NCBI GenBank assembly: GCA_041572575.1
Contig: JBFFSH010000060.1
Location: 1 to 15,900, forward strand
Source of the DNA: Thermodesulfobacteriota bacterium
GTDB lineage: Bacteria; Desulfobacterota_D; UBA1144; Nemesobacterales; N074bin48
Length of the DNA: 15,900 nt
Direction of reading: 5' to 3'
The stretch's first letter is position 1. The number at the start of each line of letters is the position of its first letter. The position numbers and the translations under genes were made by a program. Under the pieces are notes generated by a model that saw only the letters and a list, made by a program, of their open reading frames with translations, was not told the origin of the DNA and did no database searches. Positions 1,268-15,900 of this stretch are shown here, in pieces.

Positions 1268-1477
1268 AAAAATATAATTATTTGTAGATTATAAATTGAT
1301 AAGATGATGTTAAGTGATGAATATTAACAATTATTAGTCCAATATTACTAATATTCAACAAACTTGTTGAAAAATCATAAATATTAGTGTCAGTTTGTTA
1401 TAACAAGATATTAATATTTTATCAATAAACAATATTTATTGATCAACATAGAAGGATATATAAAAGATAATAATAAT

Positions 1478-4400
1478 ATGCATAAGAGTCTGTTGGAAAT
1501 ATTATTAAAAGAAAGAATCTTAATTCTAGATGGTGCCATGGGCACCATGATACAGAGATACAAACTGGAAGAAGAAGACTTTAGGGGCAATTTGTTAAGA
1601 GACCATCATTCAGACCTTAAAGGCAATAATGATCTACTTTCACTTACACGACCAGATATTATCTCAGAAATTCACAGACAATATTTTGAAGCAGGTGCAG
1701 ATATTGTTGAAACTAATACTTTTAGTGCCACAACCATAGCTCAGGCAGATTACGGATTACAGCACATAGTTAAGGATATAAATAGAGAATCTGCAAAATT
1801 AGCCAAAAATGTTGCCAGTGAAATCATGAACGAATATCCAGATCGCAAATGTTTTGTAGCAGGGGCAATAGGACCAACAAATAGAACAGCTTCAATGTCA
1901 CCAGATGTAAATAATCCGGCATTCAGGGCAGTGAGTTTCCAGGAGCTTGTAGATGCATATACAGAGCAGGTTGAAGCTCTTGTTGAGGGCGGGGTGGATA
2001 TACTTCTTCCAGAGACTACTTTTGATACACTGAATTTAAAAGCTGCAATATATGCTATTGAGCAGTTCTTTGATAAATCCGATAAGAGACTACCCGTGAT
2101 GCTATCAGTAACAATTACCGATAAATCAGGGAGAACACTTTCCGGACAGACAATTGAAGCATTTTGGAACTCTGTTAGACATGCAAAGCCGCTTAGTGTT
2201 GGAATAAACTGTGCACTTGGAGCCGAAGACATGCGCCCTTATATTGAAGAACTATCAAATATTGCAGATTGTTATATTAGCTGTTACCCAAATGCCGGGC
2301 TTCCAAATCCTCTTAGTGAAACGGGTTATGATCAAACCCCTGAAATAACTTCAACATTATTGGATGAATTTTGTAGTAGTGGTTTTATTAATATAGTAGG
2401 CGGATGTTGCGGGACTACACCCGATCATATTGGTGTCATTGCAAAAAAAGTTAAAAACTATAAACCTAGACAAGTTCCCCGGATAGAACAAGCGACAAGG
2501 CTAAGCGGCCTGGAAGCTCTGAGTATAGGATCTGAAAAAGAATCTCCCTTTATAATGGTTGGTGAAAGAACCAATGTGACTGGCTCACCAAGATTTGCAA
2601 AACTAATAAAAGAAGATGATTTCGATACTGCACTTAGCGTTGCTCGACAGCAGGTGGAAAACGGAGCAAATATAATAGACATAAATTTTGATGAAGGTCT
2701 TTTAGATAGTGAAAAATGTATGGAACGTTTCTTAAACCTCATTTCTTCAGAACCGGATATCGCAAAAGTTCCAATAATGATAGACAGCTCCAAATTTTCT
2801 GTTATTGAAGCAGGTCTCAGGTGTGTTCAGGGTAAATGCATAGTAAACTCCATAAGTCTTAAAGAGGGTGAAGATATATTTATAGAACAGGCCCATAAGG
2901 TTAAACGCTATGGGGCATCAATGGTAGTTATGGCCTTTGATGAAAAAGGTCAGGCAGCAAACAAAGAAGATAAAATAAGAATTTGTGAAAGAGCATATAA
3001 AATACTTACTGAAAAAGTCGGGATTGAACCAGAAGACATTATTTTTGATCCAAATATTCTCACAGTAAGTACCGGTATTGAAGAGCACAACAACTATGCT
3101 GTTGATTTTATAGAAGCTGTAAGAGAGATAAAGAAGAGATGCCCGGGGGCTCTTACAAGCGGTGGAGTAAGTAACGTATCGTTTTCATTTAGAGGTAATA
3201 ACATAGTAAGAGAAGCCATGCACAGTGCGTTTCTCTATCATGCAATAGAAGCAGGCCTTGATATGGGAATAGTCAATGCCGGTATGCTCGCAGTATATGA
3301 CGACGTAGAAAAAGAACTCTTAGATAAAGTAGAAAATGTTCTTCTTAATAAACACCCTGAGGCTACAGATGAGCTTATAGATTTTGCTGAGCAGTATAAA
3401 GGAGTAAAAAGTACTGAGAAGAAAGAAGATAAGAAATGGCGAAATCAAGATGTAAACAAGAGAATACAATATGCACTTGTAAATGGTATCACCGATTTTA
3501 TAGAGGAAGATACAGAGGAAGTGCGAGCATCATTAAACAAGCCATTAGATGTTATAGAAGGTCCACTTATGGACGGCATGAAGGTAGTCGGTAAATTATT
3601 CGGTGATGGAAAGATGTTTTTGCCGCAGGTAGTAAAAAGCGCTCGCGTGATGAAAAAGGCAGTAGCATATCTTGAACCATTTATGGAAGAAGAAAAGAAG
3701 AAGAATAAAGATACAAAAGGACAAGGTAAATTCGTGATAGCTACGGTTAAAGGAGATGTGCATGATATTGGAAAGAATATCGTTTCTGTAGTACTTGCAT
3801 GTAACAACTACGAAGTAAAAGATCTTGGGGTAATGGTTTCATGTGATGATATATTAAAGACAGCAAAGGAATTAAATGCAGATTTTATTGGTATGAGCGG
3901 ACTCATTACGCCATCCTTAGATGAGATGATGTATAACGCTTCAGAGATGGAAAGGCAGGGCTTTGATACTCCGCTTCTTATAGGTGGGGCAACAACCAGT
4001 AATGCTCACACCGCAATAAAAATAGCCCCTAATTATAGTGGTGTCGTATCTCACGTGCAGGATGCATCTCTTGTAGTAAACGTTTGCAATAATTTACTGA
4101 ATCCCAATTACTCCAAAAAGTATATAGATGAGATTAAAGCGGAACAGGAGAAACTGAGAAAATTACATTTAGACAAAACAAATTTAAAAAAATATTTGTC
4201 TATTAAAGAAGTAAGAGAAAAAGGTTTAAAAACTAATTGGACTAAAATGAACATTCCTAAACCTGAATTTACAGGGATTAATGTCTTTGAGAATATAAAA
4301 ATGGATGAAATAGTAGATTACATCGATTGGTCTCCGCTGTTTTGGGTTTGGGAACTTAAGGGAAGCTTTCCAAAGATATTGAAGCATAAAAAATATGGTG

Positions 4401-5179
4401 ATCATGCTGAAAAGTTATATGATGAAGCCATGAGTCTGCTTAAGGAAATTATAAAAGATAACAGATTTAATCCAAGAGCTGTCATTGGACTCTTTCCTGC
4501 TAATTCCATAAAGGATGATATAGTGCTTTATTCGAATGAAGATAGGAATGAGAGTATTTATACATTACATTTTTTAAGGCAGCAAGAGTACCGTGGAGAA
4601 AAAGCTCAGTATCTTTGCCTATCAGATTTTATTGCTCCAGCAGATACGGGGATTAAAGATTATATTGGAGCATTTTGTGTTACTGCTGGTGAAGAGGTAG
4701 ATGAATTTGCATCATATTTTAAAAATAAAAATGATGATTATAACTCTATAATGGTACAGGCTCTTGGAGACAGAATTGCAGAAGCACTTGCAGAAATGAT
4801 TCATAAAAAAGTAAGAGACTATTGGGGCTACGGAAAAGACGAGAAATTAACAAGCGACGAGTTGATAAAAGAAAAATATATTGGAATAAGACCAGCGCCA
4901 GGTTATCCGGCATGCCCCGACCATACAGAGAAAAGAACAATCTGGAACCTGCTTAAGGTTGAAGATAATATCGGTGTTAAACTCACTGAAAACTGTGCAA
5001 TGTATCCTCCAAGCTCAGTATCAGGTCTATACTTCTCTCATCCAAAATCAAAATACTTCAATATTGGCAAGATTAATAATGATCAAATAGAAGATTATGC
5101 ATTAAGAAAAGGAATGACCATTAAAGAGGTCGAAAAGTGGCTTCATCCTAATTTGGGTTATGATCCAACAGATAATTAA
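1478..5179 (+). CDS. metH: Cobalamin-dependent methionine synthase
   Basis: LDGAMGT, GINC and GGCCGT (Zn/homocysteine domain), GERTN (folate domain), DVHDIGKN (B12-binding DxHxxG), [10 protein letters not shown] (AdoMet activation domain). ATG 1478 is preferred over TTG 1439 because homology starts at ERILILDG; the start is uncertain. Confidence 0.98.
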
Positions 5180-5716: not shown

Positions 5717-7153
5717 TTAACCATCAAGTCCCGTAATTTTTGCAACAAGTGATTTTCTTTCTTCAAAATCATATTTTCTCATCATTTCAATTCTCTGTGC
5801 TTCGGGTGATCCACCACCGTGTATTCCAATTATAGAATACCATCCGCCTTGATATGAGGCCGTAATGTCCTCAAGTAGTCTTGCCATCTTAAGGCGTTTA
5901 TCTGATGGAATGTCTTTGTTTGCAGTGAGATAGGATGATAATTTCTCTCCTACTTCTGGTATTTCCATATCCTCAGGATATGGAGACGCAACGAGTATCC
6001 CACCTGATACCTCGTGGGCTACTTTATACATATCATAAATGTGGGTGCCCTGAAGGAGTTTTCCTATATTGGCATATACCGGGTCGGGACTGAAATTTCC
6101 AGCAGGGGTTTCCTTCCCAAATACTGCCGATGTGACGCCGCAGGCATAGAATGATTCAACATATTTAATTAGTTCTGTAATGCTTTGTCTTATATGTCCT
6201 ACTTTATTAGGATTTAATCCATTAGCCTCAGCCATGGTTGTAGAAGCTCCTATAAGCATATCACCAAGACCAGCTCTAGCCCCTATACAGCTTACCCTGT
6301 GATGAGTTGCAAAGGATTCTGTAAGGAGTCCAGCAAACTGCCATTCTCCTGCAAGAAATACTCTGTTCCACGGAACAAACACATCATCAAAAAGTATTTG
6401 TGCAGTTGCCTGACCGTATTTATTAGATAACTCGGCAGAACTTTGATCGGGTCTCCCTGCTTCTCTAGTTACCATTTCTACTCCCTTTGTATCAATGGGT
6501 ATGGCGAATGAAACAGAATAATCAGAATCTTTCTCTGTCATTGTCCTGCATGGAAGCACAATTATTTCATGTGTATAAGGAGCGCCGGTTACGATAGCCT
6601 TGATTCCTCTTACAGTAATACCTTTTTTTGTTCTCTTTACTATTCTTAAGTATAAATCAGGGTTTTTCTGTTCATGTGGTCTTTTGGTTCTGTCACCTTT
6701 AGCATCAGTCATGGCAACACATGTGGTTAAATCTTCATCCTGTAAATACTCAAGATATTCTAAAAACTTAGAATAATAATCAGAACCTGTTTTTAAATCT
6801 ACAAGATGCGTGTTCTCATATAGAGCATTTAAGGCATCATGACAGAGATATCTTTGAGCACAACCTGTTGTCCTGCAAAGAAGTCTTGTTGTCATTTCAA
6901 GTTTTTTTAACAGATCATCCGTATTAGTATTTATATGTAGCAGCCGGCTAACTTTATTTCCGGTAATATGCGATGTTGCAAGCATAATATCCTCATAGTC
7001 TGGGTTATGAGAATATTCGTATGTTAGAGAAATAGCATTAACACCAGGAAAAAGTTTTGGCTCATCGGCAACACTTTTTATTCTTTTTCCTTTTAAATAG
7101 ACAACAGGTTTTAGTTCTCTAAGGCTTTGTACAAACTCTTCGGGTGTTTTCAT
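5717..7153 (-). CDS. 4-hydroxybutyryl-CoA dehydratase (AbfD)/HpaB-family flavoprotein, atypical active site
   Basis: MKTPEEFVQSLR N-terminus, AMTDAKGDR, VRGIKAIVTG, FDDVFVPWNRVFL and HGGGSPEAQR match the AbfD branch of the HpaB/acyl-CoA dehydrogenase-fold family. Several catalytic positions differ (see findings). Confidence 0.9.
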   Translation of the reverse strand: MKTPEEFVQSLRELKPVVYLKGKRIKSVADEPKLFPGVNAISLTYEYSHNPDYEDIMLATSHITGNKVSRLLHINTNTDDLLKKLEMTTRLLCRTTGCAQRYLCHDALNALYENTHLVDLKTGSDYYSKFLEYLEYLQDEDLTTCVAMTDAKGDRTKRPHEQKNPDLYLRIVKRTKKGITVRGIKAIVTGAPYTHEIIVLPCRTMTEKDSDYSVSFAIPIDTKGVEMVTREAGRPDQSSAELSNKYGQATAQILFDDVFVPWNRVFLAGEWQFAGLLTESFATHHRVSCIGARAGLGDMLIGASTTMAEANGLNPNKVGHIRQSITELIKYVESFYACGVTSAVFGKETPAGNFSPDPVYANIGKLLQGTHIYDMYKVAHEVSGGILVASPYPEDMEIPEVGEKLSSYLTANKDIPSDKRLKMARLLEDITASYQGGWYSIIGIHGGGSPEAQRIEMMRKYDFEERKSLVAKITGLDG

Positions 7154-7192: not shown

Positions 7193-7486
7193 TCAGCAAT
7201 CAGCAATATCCAAAAATCTTCTGCTTGGCTTTCCTGCAAGGAATGACCTAAGTTTGTCTAAAGTTCCAGAAGAGACTCTCCACTCGTGATATTTATGATA
7301 ATCATCAGGGGTACTCCATTTTTCAACAAGCACCATTAAATCAGAATCCTCTTCATCAAAACAAACATCGATCCCTTCATTACCCTCAAATGCTCTTGTA
7401 TCAGGTAAGATTTCTCTCATATAAGATACTAGTTCTTCTTTTGTTCCTGGTTTTATTTTAACTTCAGCTATTAATACTACACTCAT
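7193..7486 (-). CDS. Antibiotic biosynthesis monooxygenase (ABM) domain protein
   Basis: 97 aa. The pattern VKIKPG...TRAFEGNEG...VLVEKWST...Y..W fits the ABM dimeric alpha/beta barrel. SD AAGGAG overlaps the upstream stop codon. Confidence 0.85.
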   Translation of the reverse strand: MSVVLIAEVKIKPGTKEELVSYMREILPDTRAFEGNEGIDVCFDEEDSDLMVLVEKWSTPDDYHKYHEWRVSSGTLDKLRSFLAGKPSRRFLDIADC

Positions 7487-7498
7487 GATTAATTCTCC

Positions 7499-7933
7499 TT
7501 ATTTTTTGAATAAATTTTCATTTATATTTTTAAAAGACTTAAATTCAAGTGCATTGCCACTAGGATCTAAGAAAAACATAGTTGCTTGCTCTCCTGTCTT
7601 TCCCTTAAATCTTATATATGGTTTTATCACAAATTCCATATTTTTTCCAGTCAGTTTATCTGCAAGCTTTTGCCAGTCACTCATTTCTAAAACTACCCCA
7701 GCATGAGGCACAGGGACAGAATGTTTATCAACAGGGTTGTAATGTAGAGTTACTTTGCCATCTTTACCTAAATCAGGATTTAGATGACACACAAACTGAT
7801 GACCATACATATTATAGTCAACCCAGTTTGTATCACTTCTACCTTCCTCTAGGCCAAGTATTTGCCCATAGAACTCTCTTGATTCTTGTATATCTCTTAC
7901 TTGTACAGCAATATGAAAAGGGGTTAATTTCAT
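7499..7933 (-). CDS. VOC/glyoxalase family protein (putative extradiol dioxygenase-like)
   Basis: PFHIAVQVRD...FYG..LG..EGRS, VPVPHAGVVL and EQATMFFLDPSGNALEFK provide the His/His/Glu metal-ligand pattern of VOC proteins. Confidence 0.9.
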   Translation of the reverse strand: MKLTPFHIAVQVRDIQESREFYGQILGLEEGRSDTNWVDYNMYGHQFVCHLNPDLGKDGKVTLHYNPVDKHSVPVPHAGVVLEMSDWQKLADKLTGKNMEFVIKPYIRFKGKTGEQATMFFLDPSGNALEFKSFKNINENLFKK

Positions 7934-9940: not shown

Positions 9941-10915
9941 CTACTTGTTTAAGGACTTTGCAATTTGTTTTGCAAAATATGTGATAATTAAATCAGCTCC
10001 TGCTCTTTTAATTGAAATAAGTATTTCATTTACTACCTTGTCTTCATCTATCCATCCCATCTTTGAAGCTGCCTTCACCATTGAATATTCACCGCTAACA
10101 TTATACGCGGCAAGTGGATGATTAAATTCTTCTCTTACAGCGCTTATTACATCCAAATAAGAAAGCGCAGGCTTTACCATCACTATATCCGCACCTTCTT
10201 CAATGTCCTGCTCAATTTCCCTGATTGCTTCTCTTACATTAGGTGGGTCCATTTGATAGGACTTTCTATCTCCATACTGAGGTGCGGACTGTGCAGCATC
10301 TCTAAAAGGACCATAGAAAGCTGAGCAATATTTAGCCGAATAAGACATGATGATTTTATTGTGAAATTCGTTATCATCCAGTACTTCGCGTATTTTAGCC
10401 ACTCTTCCATCCATCATATCCGATGGCGCTATAATATCAGCTCCGGATTCTGCATGCGAAAGAGCAGTTAATGATAATAACTCAAGCGTCTCATCATTAT
10501 CAACATAACCATCGTGAATAACACCGCAGTGGCCGTGATCGGTATATTCACAAAGGCACAGATCAGTAATAACAACTAACTGTGGAAATTCCTTTTTTAT
10601 GGCCTTAACTGCTGTTTGTATAATACCTTTTTTGCTATAGGCCCCTGTTGCAATATCATCCTTTTTGTCGGGAATACCAAAAAGAAGAATAGCCTTAATA
10701 CCATAATTAGTTATTTCTTCAATCTCTTTTAAAGCATTGTCAACTGAGAGCCTGTAAATATCAGGCATGGATTCTATCTCCTGAGATTTATTGTTACCTG
10801 CTACAATAAACATCGGATATATTAGATCATTTAAAGAAATCTCTGTTTCTTTTACAAGATCACGAATGTTTTGGTTAAGCCTCAGTCTTCTTAGTCGTGT
10901 TATTGGGAAAAACAT
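9941..10915 (-). CDS. hemB: Porphobilinogen synthase (delta-aminolevulinate dehydratase), Zn-binding type
   Basis: RLRRLR N-terminus, [14 protein letters not shown] (three Zn Cys), [17 protein letters not shown] and VMVKP (Schiff-base lysines), AYNVSGEY. Start placed at ATG 10915 because the track's TTG 10939 lies within the terminator U-tract. Confidence 0.98.
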
Positions 10916-10937
10916 AGTATTTATAAATAATTTAATC

Positions 10938-10972
10938 AAAAAAAAGGGTGTTATAAAAATATAACACCCTTT
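10938..10972 (-). terminator. Intrinsic terminator of the nitroreductase operon
   Basis: Perfect 13-bp inverted repeat AAAGGGTGTTATA (10943-10955) / TATAACACCCTTT (10960-10972) with a 4-nt loop. A8 at 10938-10945 gives a U8 tract on the minus strand. Confidence 0.9.
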
Positions 10973-11231: not shown

Positions 11232-12263
11232 TTAATCTGCGTCTCCGATACCTTTTTCTTTCCTGTAATTTTCAAGAACCTCTCTTCTAACTGTAGGTGT
11301 AAGCTGCATTTCTACAGGTACATCACCTGGTACAGTAGCTTGAAATTCTTCATCGGTTAAAGGTACTGGTTTTGTATCAGCACATGTTACAGTATCGGTA
11401 TCAGTCTGAGATGGAGCAAGTTTCCAATCGGTCATGTGTTCTTCGCCAAGACCAAATCTCTTTGTGAGTCTGTTGATCTCTTCGAGTCTTCCTGGTAGAG
11501 GACCTGGAGCCTGGATTAAGTTAAGCTCTTCTAGGAGTTTTACTGTTTTTTCATCTCTTTTAAATGAATTACCAACCTGTTTTTCAAAAAACATTCTTTC
11601 AAATGGTGGTCTTGGTCTTGTACCGCCGCCATCCATTTTTTCAGCAGGATAACCAACTGTCATAAGCCAAGAAAATACATATGTATTTGGCAGGTTGAAT
11701 TTAGTTTTTACATTCCTTCTTGCACCACCGCTTGCACCATTTAGGCATGTAGCAAGTCCTAGAGCTGAAGCAGCTATCATAGAATTCTGAATTGCATTAC
11801 CAAGGTCAATTGCAGCAAGTCTGTGCATAATAAAATCTGGAAGCATAGCAGGGAGAGGGAAAAGTTTATTAACCCTTTCATATTCCCAACCATGTGCCTT
11901 ATCAAGAGCACCTGTTCTCATGAGGTCGTGAATACTTTGTCCCTGTACGTCATAACCTGACATATCGTAGCACCAGAAAAATAGTATTGGAGCCATCTGG
12001 GTTGTAATCTGACTCCAGTCTGAAATGAACTCCCAAATATCTGGGTCTTCATCTCTGTATACAACAATAGCTCTCTGTCCATTAAAGTTTCCTGCAGAAG
12101 GAGCTATTCTTGCAGCTTCAAGCATGGCTTGTACTTTCCATCTTTCAACAGGTTTGTTAGGTTCATACCATCTGATGGATCTTCTTATTCCCATTGCATC
12201 CAATGCATCTCTAACTTTGACTTCACTGGAATTGGGAACGCTGTCTATTAACAAATCACTCAT
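11232..12263 (-). CDS. Nitroreductase-family flavoprotein with C-terminal extension
   Basis: RRSIRWY (FMN phosphate binding), LEAARIAPSAGN, DLGNAIQNSMIAASALGLATC, VGYP, R.RPP. SD AAGGAGGT at 12277-12270. Confidence 0.9.
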   Translation of the reverse strand: MSDLLIDSVPNSSEVKVRDALDAMGIRRSIRWYEPNKPVERWKVQAMLEAARIAPSAGNFNGQRAIVVYRDEDPDIWEFISDWSQITTQMAPILFFWCYDMSGYDVQGQSIHDLMRTGALDKAHGWEYERVNKLFPLPAMLPDFIMHRLAAIDLGNAIQNSMIAASALGLATCLNGASGGARRNVKTKFNLPNTYVFSWLMTVGYPAEKMDGGGTRPRPPFERMFFEKQVGNSFKRDEKTVKLLEELNLIQAPGPLPGRLEEINRLTKRFGLGEEHMTDWKLAPSQTDTDTVTCADTKPVPLTDEEFQATVPGDVPVEMQLTPTVRREVLENYRKEKGIGDAD

Positions 12264-12473: not shown

Positions 12474-13625
12474 ATGAGAGATGTATATATTATAGGAGTT
12501 GGTACCACTAGCTGTGGCCGTTTTCCTGACAAAGGAGCACATGTACTTGGCAGTGATGCCGCTTGGAAAGCAATTTTAGATTCAGGAATACATGCAAGAA
12601 AGATCGAAATTGCATTTTGCGGCCATGTGTATCAGGGTATGGGAGTAGGACAAAGGACATTTAAAGAGATTGGTCTTGTAGGCCAGCCTGTTGTAAATGT
12701 AGAGGGAGCATGCGGAAGCGGAACACTTTCATTATGGGAAGCATGGAGATCTATTGCTTATGGTCAGTTTGATGTTGCCCTTGCGCTTGGTGTAGAAAAT
12801 TTAAGCAGAATCCTTTCAGGCGGTCCACTACCTCTCGAAGATGATGATATTGAAGTTGCACTAGGAATGGGAATGCCTGCACTTTATGCAATGAGAGCCA
12901 AGAGATATATGGCTGAATATGGAACAACCGAAGAACAATTTGCAAATGTAGTTGTTAAAAGCAGAAAACACGCAGCACTAAACCCAATTGCACAGTATAG
13001 AAAACAGATATCCGTTGAAGAAATTTTAAATTCACCAATGATCGCCGACCCACTTACCAGAAATCAGTGCTGTCCGGTAGGAGACGCGGCAGCAGCAGCT
13101 GTTCTTTGTTCAGAAGACAAAGTAAAAGAACTGGCAACTAAGCAGCCTGTTAAAATTCTTGGATGTATTTCACAATCTGGTAAATACAACACACCCGATA
13201 AATTAATATGTGATCCTTCAGAAAATGTTGCAAGAACCTCATCTATGGCATATGAAATGGCAGGCCTGGGCCCAGAAGACATGGATCTTGCTGAAATACA
13301 TGATGCATTTACTGTTGCCGAGATGATTGTTGTTGAAGCACTTGGTTTTTGCAAGAAAGGAGAAGGTGCAGAACTTACAGATAGCGGCCGTACATCTTTG
13401 GGCGGGGATAGTGTTTGTGTAAATCCAAGCGGTGGACTTCTTTCAAGAGGACATCCCATAGGAGCAACAGGTCTGCTGCAGACCGCAGAGCTTGTATGGC
13501 ACTTAAGAGGTGAAGCAGGAGACAGACAGGTTCCTGGCGCAAAAGTTGGAATAATTGAAACTATGGGTGGCGCACAACCTGCAATGGATGGTATAACCTG
13601 CGTAGTTGCAATTCTTGGCGTCTAA
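12474..13625 (+). CDS. SCP2/SCP-x type thiolase family protein
   Basis: NVEGACGSG (nucleophile Cys80), EIHDAF, VNPSGGLLSRGHPIGATG. SD AAGGAGG at 12461-12467. Confidence 0.93.
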   Translation: MRDVYIIGVGTTSCGRFPDKGAHVLGSDAAWKAILDSGIHARKIEIAFCGHVYQGMGVGQRTFKEIGLVGQPVVNVEGACGSGTLSLWEAWRSIAYGQFDVALALGVENLSRILSGGPLPLEDDDIEVALGMGMPALYAMRAKRYMAEYGTTEEQFANVVVKSRKHAALNPIAQYRKQISVEEILNSPMIADPLTRNQCCPVGDAAAAAVLCSEDKVKELATKQPVKILGCISQSGKYNTPDKLICDPSENVARTSSMAYEMAGLGPEDMDLAEIHDAFTVAEMIVVEALGFCKKGEGAELTDSGRTSLGGDSVCVNPSGGLLSRGHPIGATGLLQTAELVWHLRGEAGDRQVPGAKVGIIETMGGAQPAMDGITCVVAILGV

Positions 13626-13657
13626 ATAATATAAGATAATAAGGAGAAATATGAAAA

Positions 13658-14053
13658 ATGAGCGAAGATAAAGAATTATTTTTAGCTGAACTTTTTGGAA
13701 CAAAACCACATGTGCATCTTATAGGTGGTAAATGTAATAAATGCGGAAAATATACATTTCCAAAATATGTTGCATGTCCTCACTGTTTTTCTGATGACAT
13801 AGTAGAAGCTCCACTTAGTAAAACAGGTAAACTACATTCCTTTACAATGGTAAGAAGAAGTATGCCGGAATTTGTAGTTCCATATGGTCTTGGTCTGGTT
13901 GATTTCCCAGAAGGAGTAAGGGTTATGGCGCAAATAGATAAGGACTATATCGAAGACCTAGAGCTGGAAGCTGATATGGAAGTAGAAATTGGTCCTGTAA
14001 GAAAAGGTAAAGACGGTAAGGATCTACATTCTTATAAATTTAAGCCTGCATAA
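13658..14053 (+). CDS. DUF35 zinc-ribbon/OB-fold protein (thiolase partner)
   Basis: CNKC...FP...CPHC zinc ribbon, G.LHSFT, PYGLGLVDFPEGVRVMAQI OB-fold. Directly follows the thiolase. Confidence 0.92.
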   Translation: MSEDKELFLAELFGTKPHVHLIGGKCNKCGKYTFPKYVACPHCFSDDIVEAPLSKTGKLHSFTMVRRSMPEFVVPYGLGLVDFPEGVRVMAQIDKDYIEDLELEADMEVEIGPVRKGKDGKDLHSYKFKPA

Positions 14054-14152: not shown

Positions 14153-15900
14153 ATGCTTAAAAAACCTGCCATAAAACCATTTAATAAAATCCTTGTTGCC
14201 AACAGAGGCGAAATATCAATAAGAATATTCAGGGCATGCTCTGAGCTTGGAATAACCACTGTAGCTATATATTCAGAAGAAGATTCTTTTTCCCTGCACA
14301 GAAACAAGGCGGACGAAGCTTACTTAATAGGAAAAGACAAGGGCCCTGTAGAAGCGTATCTGGATATAGAAGGAATAATACAACTTGCAAAGGACAAGAA
14401 TGTAGACGCCATTCACCCTGGATATGGCTTCCTGAGCGAAAATGCACATTTTGCCAGGGCCTGCGAAGAAGCTGGTATAAGTTTTATAGGTCCATCACCT
14501 GATTCTATAGCGCGTATGGGTGATAAGGCCGAGGGCAGAAAAATAGCTCAAGAGGTAGGGGTTCCCGTTGTACCGGGAACAGAGGGTTTTGTTGAGACAC
14601 AAAAACAAGCCTTTGATTTTGCAAAGAAAAGCGGGTTTCCGGTGATGGTAAAAGCAGCAATGGGCGGGGGCGGCAGAGGCATCAGGATTTGCAGAGATAA
14701 AAAATCACTTATAGAGAATTTTAAACAATCAAGATCAGAAGCAAAAGCTGCTTTTGGGGATGATTCTGTTTTACTTGAAAAATATATTGAAAATCCCAAG
14801 CATATTGAGGTACAGATACTTGGTGATAAGCATGGAAAAGTAATACATCTTTTTGAAAGAGACTGCTCTGTACAAAGAAGACATCAAAAAGTAGTTGAAA
14901 TAGCTCCTTCATTACATTTATCAACTGATTTAAAGAATAGGATTTACGATTCTGCTGTAAAAATAGCAAAAGAAGTAGGTTACTTTAGCGCTGGAACAAT
15001 AGAATTTCTGGTAGAGGGTGAAAATTACTACTTTATTGAAATGAATACCAGAATACAGGTAGAACACACTGTAACCGAGATGGTAACGGGTGTAGACCTC
15101 ATTCAGGCACAAATAAGAGTTGCCGAAGGATATAAACTCTCTGACAATAAATTGTCAATTCCCAAATCTCCACGAATTAATGGCTATGCCATGCAGTGCC
15201 GTATAACAACTGAAGATCCTACTAATAATTTTCAACCTGATATAGGAAGGCTTACGGCTTACAGGTCTTCAGGTGGTTTTGGCGTAAGGCTCGATGCAGC
15301 AAGCGCATATGTCGGTGCGGTTATTACTCCTTATTATGATTCTATGCTGGTTAAGATGACCACATGGGGAAATTCATTTGAGCAGTGTATCCTAAAAATG
15401 GACAGGTCATTGCGCGAGTTCAGGATAAGGGGTGTTAAGACCAACATTCCTTTTTTACTAAATGTAATAAGGCATGAAATATTTAAAGACGGACAGTGCA
15501 CGACTACTTTTCTCGACACCCATAAAGAACTTTTTGATATAAGAGAGCCTAAGGACAGAGCAACAAAGCTTTTTAGTTATATTGGCGATACTATAATAAA
15601 TACTTCTCTTAAAAAACCTGATATATGGAAAGACAAACCTCCGGCTTTACCAAAAGTTCCTGAAATAAATGGTATCGGCAAGAAAGTTAAGCCAGTTCAC
15701 AGGGAGATATTCGAAAATAACGGCCCCAAGGCCCTTAGTGAATGGATACTTGAACAACAAAAACTCCTAATAACCGACACGACTTTTAGAGACGCTCATC
15801 AGTCTCTTCTTGCAACCCGCATGAGGTCACACGATATTTTAAACATCGCAGAGGCCACATCCAGGATTGAAAACGACGTGTTTTCGTTTGAGATGTGGGG
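14153..15900 (+). CDS. pyc: Pyruvate carboxylase, single-polypeptide type (partial, runs off the window)
   Basis: Translated by hand: MLKKPAIKPFNKILVANRGEISIRIFRA, IHPGYGFLSEN, GGGGRG, ERDCSVQRRHQK, EMNTRIQVEH (biotin carboxylase), then in the same frame ITDTTFRDAHQSLLATRMR...FEMW (carboxyltransferase). Confidence 0.97.
   Translation, partial: MLKKPAIKPFNKILVANRGEISIRIFRACSELGITTVAIYSEEDSFSLHRNKADEAYLIGKDKGPVEAYLDIEGIIQLAKDKNVDAIHPGYGFLSENAHFARACEEAGISFIGPSPDSIARMGDKAEGRKIAQEVGVPVVPGTEGFVETQKQAFDFAKKSGFPVMVKAAMGGGGRGIRICRDKKSLIENFKQSRSEAKAAFGDDSVLLEKYIENPKHIEVQILGDKHGKVIHLFERDCSVQRRHQKVVEIAPSLHLSTDLKNRIYDSAVKIAKEVGYFSAGTIEFLVEGENYYFIEMNTRIQVEHTVTEMVTGVDLIQAQIRVAEGYKLSDNKLSIPKSPRINGYAMQCRITTEDPTNNFQPDIGRLTAYRSSGGFGVRLDAASAYVGAVITPYYDSMLVKMTTWGNSFEQCILKMDRSLREFRIRGVKTNIPFLLNVIRHEIFKDGQCTTTFLDTHKELFDIREPKDRATKLFSYIGDTIINTSLKKPDIWKDKPPALPKVPEINGIGKKVKPVHREIFENNGPKALSEWILEQQKLLITDTTFRDAHQSLLATRMRSHDILNIAEATSRIENDVFSFEMW

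Follow-up and report, generated by a model that had tools for sequence, protein, structure and literature searches.

What enzyme is encoded by the AbfD-like flavoprotein gene at positions 5717-7153 (minus strand) of the window, the whole stretch of 15,900 nucleotides that was analysed? Genome surveys use the label "4-hydroxybutyryl-CoA dehydratase" (AbfD) to mark carbon fixation (PMC8139981 and PMC8406227, in their accessible parts), and many relatives of this gene carry that label in their sources. The original prediction was that the active site has been systematically remodelled, that a metal is bound by C98, C104, H285 and C289, and that the reaction differs from those of both AbfD and the HpaB monooxygenases. 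We find that the gene is a relative of 4-hydroxybutyryl-CoA dehydratase and that it belongs to a distinct clade that is neither canonical AbfD nor HpaB.

Results

The product has 478 residues and matches the Pfam domains HpaB_N and HpaB; within its clade it is a tail-less member of the C104 type. Its best solved relatives are the AbfD structures 1u8v (phmmer E 4e-103) and 6vjr, with HpaB behind at E 3e-39, and its scores against the NCBIfam HpaB models fall below the cut-offs (161 against 480.2 bits for TIGR02309; 82.4 against 885.2 for TIGR02310). The host genome (2.6 Mb, 96% complete) has a single match to PF11794, which is this gene. It also has two heme-copper oxidase subunits I, one methylmalonyl-CoA mutase and, elsewhere, one flavin reductase; no AbfT-type CoA-transferase was found in this 96% complete genome. 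A protein that is 90% identical has the source label Candidatus Dadabacteria. Within the phylum the gene is present in 33 of 120 genomes, which belong almost entirely to two families.

Two alignments, one pairwise with 1u8v (phmmer) and one profile-profile against nine canonical AbfDs, give the same residue register. They agree with the substitutions that the original prediction had tabulated by eye, and the ORF translation places its four motifs at the residues it gave. The [4Fe-4S] cluster of AbfD is held by C99, C103, H292 and C299, and the catalytic residues are T190 (the flavin-N5 threonine), E257, Y296 and E455 (bioRxiv 10.1101/2020.02.05.935528, accessible part); the ligands and catalytic residues named in the prediction match this list. 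In the 478-residue protein, C99, T190 and H292 are kept as C98, T189 and H285, and R90 is also retained. The cluster ligand set is incomplete, with Y102 at the position of C103 and A292 at that of C299. T189 is all that is kept of the catalytic set: Y296 is C289, and the two glutamates E257 and E455 are T250 and I442. The alignments thus bear out the loss of two ligands and both glutamates, and they show that Cys and Tyr have been exchanged between two positions (C103 to Y102, Y296 to C289). Further changes are G105 to C104, M106 to H105 and K300 to R293.

The codons concerned are all on the minus strand. Codons 90-106, the N-terminal half of the remodelled site, lie at 6836-6886 and include R90, C93 (6875-6877), C98 (6860-6862), R101, Y102 (6848-6850), C104 (6842-6844), H105 (6839-6841) and D106. 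Codons 285-293 lie at 6275-6301, with H285 (6299-6301), R286, C289 (6287-6289), A292 (6278-6280) and R293. T189 is encoded at 6587-6589, T250 at 6404-6406 and I442 at 5828-5830.

The register against HpaB did not come out as proposed. The catalytic triad of HpaB is Arg100-Tyr104-His142 (PMC10537072, accessible part). Y102 had tentatively been placed at the conserved Tyr of HpaB, with the Arg and His partners said to be absent. No alignment puts Y102 there; Tyr104 aligns to A107 or L103, in a loop of low-confidence register. The Arg is in fact present (Arg100 aligns to R101), and the absence of the His holds, since His142 aligns to V146.

One feature is private to this copy. A tandem ACA ACA at 6887-6892 (minus strand) adds one Thr directly before R90, in the helix that bears R90 and C93, and it occurs in 1 of 319 clade sequences. 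There is no gap at this position in full-length contigs from the runs X1, X7 and X15, of which X1 and X7 are possibly the source of the same DNA. An assembly error is unsupported, because contigs of three runs carry the codon. The extra residue could impair this copy.

The remodelled residues define a clade. We assembled 319 distinct sequences, each 440 residues or longer and 48% or more identical, drawn from three protein searches (best 120 each), a representative search and two locus scans (best 80 each of 587). All 319 have R90, C93, C98, R101, Y102, D106, T189, H285, R286 and C289, and R293 (318), I442 (317) and H105 (305) are nearly invariant; the 80 loci of one locus scan were picked with patterns that include Y102, H105, D106 and R293, which favours these residues among them, and the protein searches carry no such bias. 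The position of E257 holds T in 281 sequences, V in 37 and L in 1. The signature of the clade is C93-x4-C98-x3-Y102-x2-H105 together with H285-x3-C289, in which C93 and H105 had been overlooked in the original prediction. The substitutions reflect neither chance nor decay, given Y102 and C289 in every clade sequence and a dN/dS of 0.03 for the gene against a 93% identical relative (L103); dS is saturated against a 90% identical one (L104).

Source names and titles place clade members in Dadabacteria, Alpha-, Beta- and Gammaproteobacteria, Bacilli, Dehalococcoidia (Chloroflexota), Eremiobacterota, Verrucomicrobia, Streptomyces and a Bathyarchaeia MAG. Many of the named hosts are presumably aerobes. 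A contig titled as a Nitrosopumilus sp. MAG (L078) carries a clade gene in a PrpD/CitE/MaoC cluster of the Halieaceae type, and this copy branches with gammaproteobacterial ones. This probably results from a binning error, and it illustrates how the gene could be misread as an archaeal abfD. In one genus of the host's own taxonomic order, three genomes (G034, G037 and G040; loci L010, L011 and L013) have, in place of the tail-less form, a tail-bearing, TetR-linked proteobacterial form of 52-53% identity that branches near Bradyrhizobium copies.

A FastTree phylogeny built from 111 proteins gives the clade a support of 1.0 and a long stem and places it within a Cys-bearing radiation (0.96). All four canonical ligands are still present in its nearest outsiders (40-46% identity), so the Cys/Tyr swap marks this clade. 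Many of these outsiders already have C93 and lack E455. Particular to the clade itself are thus the reciprocal exchange of Cys and Tyr and the residues H105, T250 and R293. Altered sites are found in many other AbfD paralogues of the same tree, and remodelling as such is common. A separate Cys-free group, one cluster of which has a Vulcanisaeta member, retains the His and in most cases E257; the tree holds no named type-2 reference.

We also collected a large set of other AbfD paralogues (L134-L182, P0124-P0266) with varied site patterns, one group of which has the four ligands and C93 without E455. Two tandem paralogue copies are found in each of L148, L157 and L160. AbfD genes with the full canonical residues occur on plasmids of Bradyrhizobium elkanii (L098:5950-7506) and Sphingomonas paeninsulae (L102:5917-7437), where they adjoin CoA ligase or CoA-transferase genes.

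The proposed metal site fared unevenly. C289 is universal in the clade, and C104 is found in only 44 of the 319 sequences, so C98/C104/H285/C289 does not describe the site of the family. C104 does alternate with C292, itself present in 42 sequences, and the two never occur together (0/319). Among the 70 tail-less members, 68 have exactly one of them (C104 in 37, C292 in 31) and 2 have neither. The remaining 249 members have a Cys-rich C-terminal tail, of the form CCxxGC in 221 and LxC..CxxC in 28, and 231 of these have neither C104 nor C292 (11 have C292 and 7 have C104). A further cysteine source is therefore present in 317 of 319 sequences, P0015 and P0018 being those without any. Early-branching clade members keep C292, the equivalent of AbfD C299. 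A test for co-evolution of C104 and C292 was not significant, with about three changes each on the tail-less tree and one independent pair on well-supported branches. The pattern suggests that one further thiol may be needed, with C104 perhaps among three alternative sources of it.

The AlphaFold model of the 478-residue protein (pLDDT 90.5) has 1u8v as its top match (Z 48.2, rmsd 1.6 Å over 429 residues) and HpaB as the next (Z 38.5); the acyl-CoA dehydrogenase superfamily fold is also matched (Z about 21-22). In the model, H285, C289, A292 and R293 are on one helix (271-310) at i, i+4, i+7 and i+8, and Y102 and H105 are at the start of another. A homodimer is predicted with a score of 0.84 (best of three controls 0.00), with at least 99% contact agreement between runs and pLDDT of at least 91; 20 of 30 solved pairs and 1 of 23 single chains attain the mark used. 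This predicted score likely reflects likeness to solved AbfD and HpaB. A homologue with a tail, modelled without an alignment, reached a pLDDT of 32, which is uninformative on how the tail docks. A query of the ESM Atlas through the homologue P0068 yielded HpaB-family clusters alone, under automatic names.

Upstream of the gene, on the same strand, are an ABM-domain gene (Pfam ABM; 7193-7486, 39 bp away) and then a Glyoxalase/VOC gene (7499-7933), the latter kept only in the two closest relatives. The ABM gene is adjacent in L103, and in L104 another ORF stands in its place: an opposite-strand ORF of 534 residues between the VOC and AbfD-like genes. The ABM gene is possibly co-transcribed with the AbfD-like gene here and is not a conserved partner. 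A promoter and terminator scan gave no more than chance would (7 found against 10.6 expected; 0 against 1.8). Contigs from RNA libraries, with flat depth over genes and spacers in X15 and two short pieces only in X18, do not demonstrate transcription.

Other parts of the window hold a thiolase-like gene followed by an OB-fold/zinc-ribbon gene (12474-14053; a ChsH2/BbsA-type pair, with scores all below NCBIfam cut-offs) and a nitroreductase-family protein of 343 residues (11232-12263) with about 130 extra C-terminal residues past its Pfam match. Housekeeping genes lie at 1439-5179, 9941-10939 and 14153-15898 (B12-dependent methionine synthase and pyruvate-carboxylase-type biotin carboxylase, by eye; ALA dehydratase). 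In several Dadabacteria, a 460-residue protein with no Pfam or NCBIfam match is encoded directly upstream of the clade gene (L017:6113-7504, plus strand), and the host genome has three paralogues of it, of 83, 55 and 48% identity (contigs C28, C27 and C18 of G000).

We counted neighbours at 117 loci with our own ORF calling, leaving out duplicates (L001-L005, L009) and fragments of less than 400 residues. The neighbours were TetR (40), acyl-CoA dehydrogenase (29), PrpD (29), CitE (29), GntR (25), an isochorismatase-like protein (20), class III CoA-transferase (20), TauD (17), a RipB-like MaoC (16), a DSBA-like thioredoxin (13) and an NtaA/DmoA-family monooxygenase (11). At least one acyl-CoA gene (dehydrogenase, PrpD, CitE, class III CoA-transferase or MaoC) was found at 46 of the 117 loci and none at the other 71; these are raw counts without a background rate, and many of the positives are close kin (Halieaceae, Roseococcus). 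The association with CitE, PrpD and CoA-transferase recurs on several branches. The neighbouring monooxygenase is nearest to the desulfurisation enzyme DszA, PrpD is nearest to iminodisuccinate epimerase among solved structures, and the MaoC- and CitE-type neighbours score under the NCBIfam RipB and RipC cut-offs. None of the 18 tail-less Dadabacteria loci, some of which have short flanks, has acyl-CoA neighbours, and searches of the host genome for PrpD, CitE, class III CoA-transferase, TauD and a DszA-like monooxygenase gave no match.

Two candidate partners were rejected. Of the 41 genomes in the order, a single one has PrpD, and the clade gene is missing from it, so the PrpD cluster is not an obligate context. 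In Bacilli, 3 of 4 full-length loci have TetR, the clade gene and then an isochorismatase-like gene. The isochorismatase-like protein is not an obligate partner, because in two families (f2 and f7) it is found in 27 of 32 carriers of the clade gene and in 13 of 16 non-carriers, and it was not found in the host genome. Two reductase queries (tblastn) found a flavin reductase near 5 of 112 clade loci, all five beside a luciferase-like monooxygenase. An AbfT-type CoA-transferase was found at none of the 112, whereas the canonical AbfD of locus L097 has one next door.

Discussion

The reading that we prefer, and hold tentatively, is that the clade protein is an FAD-dependent, redox-neutral acyl-CoA lyase or isomerase with a relocated Cys/His metal site and a substrate other than 4-hydroxybutyryl-CoA. 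FAD is very probably bound, judging from the flavin loop (residues 147-155) and T189, which are as in AbfD. In place of the canonical [4Fe-4S] cluster, the Cys/His site probably binds a metal, most simply Zn, mononuclear Fe or a [2Fe-2S] cluster. C98, H285 and C289 would be ligands, joined by one residue from among H105, C93 and the variable cysteine, which is C104 in this protein and C292 or a tail Cys in other members. The site would be shifted towards the old position of Y296. C93 need not be a ligand, as relatives with the full canonical cluster carry it too. Y102, at the old position of C103, could replace Y296 as the phenol of the active site.

A CoA-thioester substrate is somewhat favoured. 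The PrpD, CitE, MaoC, CoA-transferase and DszA-like neighbours of the relatives point to an acyl-CoA lyase or isomerase, and the loss of both glutamates makes an AbfD-type elimination of water unlikely. Elimination of a group that leaves more readily would fit, as would a double-bond shift. We identified no replacement general acid or base for E257 or E455. The reaction might be a C4 elimination or a double-bond shift on a substituted succinyl- or butyryl-CoA, with a sulfur-linked leaving group bound by the thiophilic site. The sulfur is a guess, made from that site and from the DszA and TauD neighbours.

The invariant residues could also work without a catalytic metal. The protein might be a metal-free or structurally metal-bound flavoenzyme with catalytic Cys, His and Tyr, for example a thiol-based lyase, an isomerase or an enzyme that detoxifies electrophile-thiol adducts, acting alone under a TetR repressor. 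Such a role would suit the commonest context, a lone gene with TetR, an isochorismatase-like gene or a DSBA-like thioredoxin, the arrangement in Bacilli, and the single, partnerless copy of the host genome. The isochorismatase-like gene, however, does not track the clade gene, and five invariant Cys, His and Tyr residues at or beside the old cluster positions, together with Cys-rich tails of two different forms, argue for a metal. We consider this alternative unlikely.

Could the clade have re-evolved HpaB-like chemistry from AbfD, as a new FADH2-dependent two-component monooxygenase in which R101 stabilises a peroxyflavin and the substrate is non-phenolic, perhaps an organosulfur compound? 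The alignment of invariant R101 with Arg100 of HpaB invites the idea, as do the two heme-copper oxidases and the flavin reductase of the host genome and the ABM and VOC genes upstream. But AbfD carries the same Arg, Tyr104 and His142 of HpaB are lost, the TIGR02309 score is far below its cut-off, and the few flavin reductases near clade loci all stand beside a monooxygenase of another kind, the luciferase-like one. A monooxygenase is, in our judgement, quite unlikely.

Retention of the ancestral activity, as 4-hydroxybutyryl-CoA dehydratase or vinylacetyl-CoA isomerase, would call for a shifted [4Fe-4S] cluster on C98, H285, C289 and C104, C292 or the tail, with new acid-base residues. A set of three Cys and one His can be counted in 317 of 319 sequences, R90, T189 and H285 are kept, and the early-branching members retain the equivalent of AbfD C299. 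Against this, E257, Y296 and E455, reported as needed (bioRxiv 10.1101/2020.02.05.935528, accessible part), are all replaced, and an AbfT-type CoA-transferase was found neither at the 112 clade loci nor in the host genome. This makes retained activity decidedly improbable. An acyl-CoA dehydrogenase-type oxidoreductase with net two-electron chemistry and the Cys/His site as an electron relay is highly improbable, since, for all its superfamily fold and acyl-CoA neighbours, neither position to which the catalytic glutamate maps holds one and a conventional acyl-CoA dehydrogenase is already encoded in the clusters.

Returning to the lyase or isomerase, we can sketch a fuller scenario, which is unlikely to hold in every part. 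The clade would be an air-adapted offshoot of AbfD in which the exchange of a Cys and a Tyr between two helices gave a new Cys/His metal site in place of the oxygen-labile [4Fe-4S] cluster, with its last ligand supplied by C104, C292 or a mobile C-terminal Cys tail. By flavin-radical chemistry the enzyme would eliminate a sulfur-linked group from substituted succinyl- or butyryl-CoA, in an undescribed catabolic route spread over bacterial phyla. If the metal site is real, the clade would illustrate the rebuilding of a radical flavo-iron-sulfur enzyme in aerobic hosts, and its cultured hosts make the reading testable.

The Cys/Tyr-swap clade is a common, strongly conserved group of enzymes with a clear signature, and that signature can filter out false carbon-fixation calls. 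The alignment, the NCBIfam scores, the absent AbfT and the conservation of the clade support the original prediction that the protein is not canonical AbfD, is not HpaB and does not mark a 4-hydroxybutyrate cycle; by its residues, a clade gene should not be counted as a carbon-fixation marker. Our literature search, with most subscription papers and bioRxiv supplements outside its reach, found no description of the clade, which appears to be a real, widespread and uncharacterised variant of the AbfD family.

Several known systems invite comparison. In Pseudomonas and Cupriavidus, the CoA route for itaconate and methylsuccinate uses PrpD, an acyl-CoA dehydrogenase, a MaoC hydratase, a CitE lyase and a CoA-transferase (PMC12290011, accessible part), and the same gene families surround proteobacterial clade members. 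Unlike that route, whose description names no AbfD-like gene in the part available, the clade has neighbours below the RipB and RipC cut-offs, and the set is missing from the host genome. BbuA, the gamma-butyrobetainyl-CoA trimethylamine lyase, performs a flavin-dependent C4 elimination and belongs to the acyl-CoA dehydrogenase superfamily (bioRxiv 2021.01.25.428109, accessible part). It offers a working analogy for the redox-neutral C4 elimination from an acyl-CoA that we propose, by description alone: the same source gives about 10% identity between BbuA and AbfD, and BbuA is no close homologue.

HpaB, TftD and TcpA (2yyg, 3hwc, 4g5e) share with the clade protein the HpaB_N and HpaB domains, the fold (Z 34-38) and the Arg. 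They differ in sequence (18-24% identity) and in the Tyr and His that the clade protein has not kept, and the clade gene has no dedicated flavin reductase alongside.

The original prediction also suggested a possible kinship with the type-2 paralogues of 4-hydroxybutyryl-CoA dehydratase, and this suggestion is not supported. Both are uncharacterised AbfD homologues with an incomplete canonical cluster set and the equivalent of His292 (H285 in every clade sequence). The type-2 proteins are described, however, as conserving His292 and lacking the cysteines (PMC4681859, accessible part, citing Berg et al. 2007), whereas the clade keeps C98 and has invariant C93 and C289, and that description would set it apart. 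The type-2-like Cys-free group with the Vulcanisaeta cluster, which mostly keeps E257, is on another branch of our tree.

The system most like the clade is AbfD itself, from Clostridium aminobutyricum (1u8v) and Nitrosopumilus maritimus (6vjr). The clade departs from it in having C103 as Y, Y296 as C, C299 as A (C in 42 of 319), E257 as T or V, E455 as I, K300 as R and M106 as H, in the missing AbfT neighbour, and in its added C93 and, in 249 of 319 members, Cys-rich tail. It shares with AbfD the fold (Z 48, rmsd 1.6 Å, 36-37% identity), the flavin-binding loop, the equivalents of R90, C99, T190 and H292, and a homo-oligomeric state, which for the clade protein is predicted.
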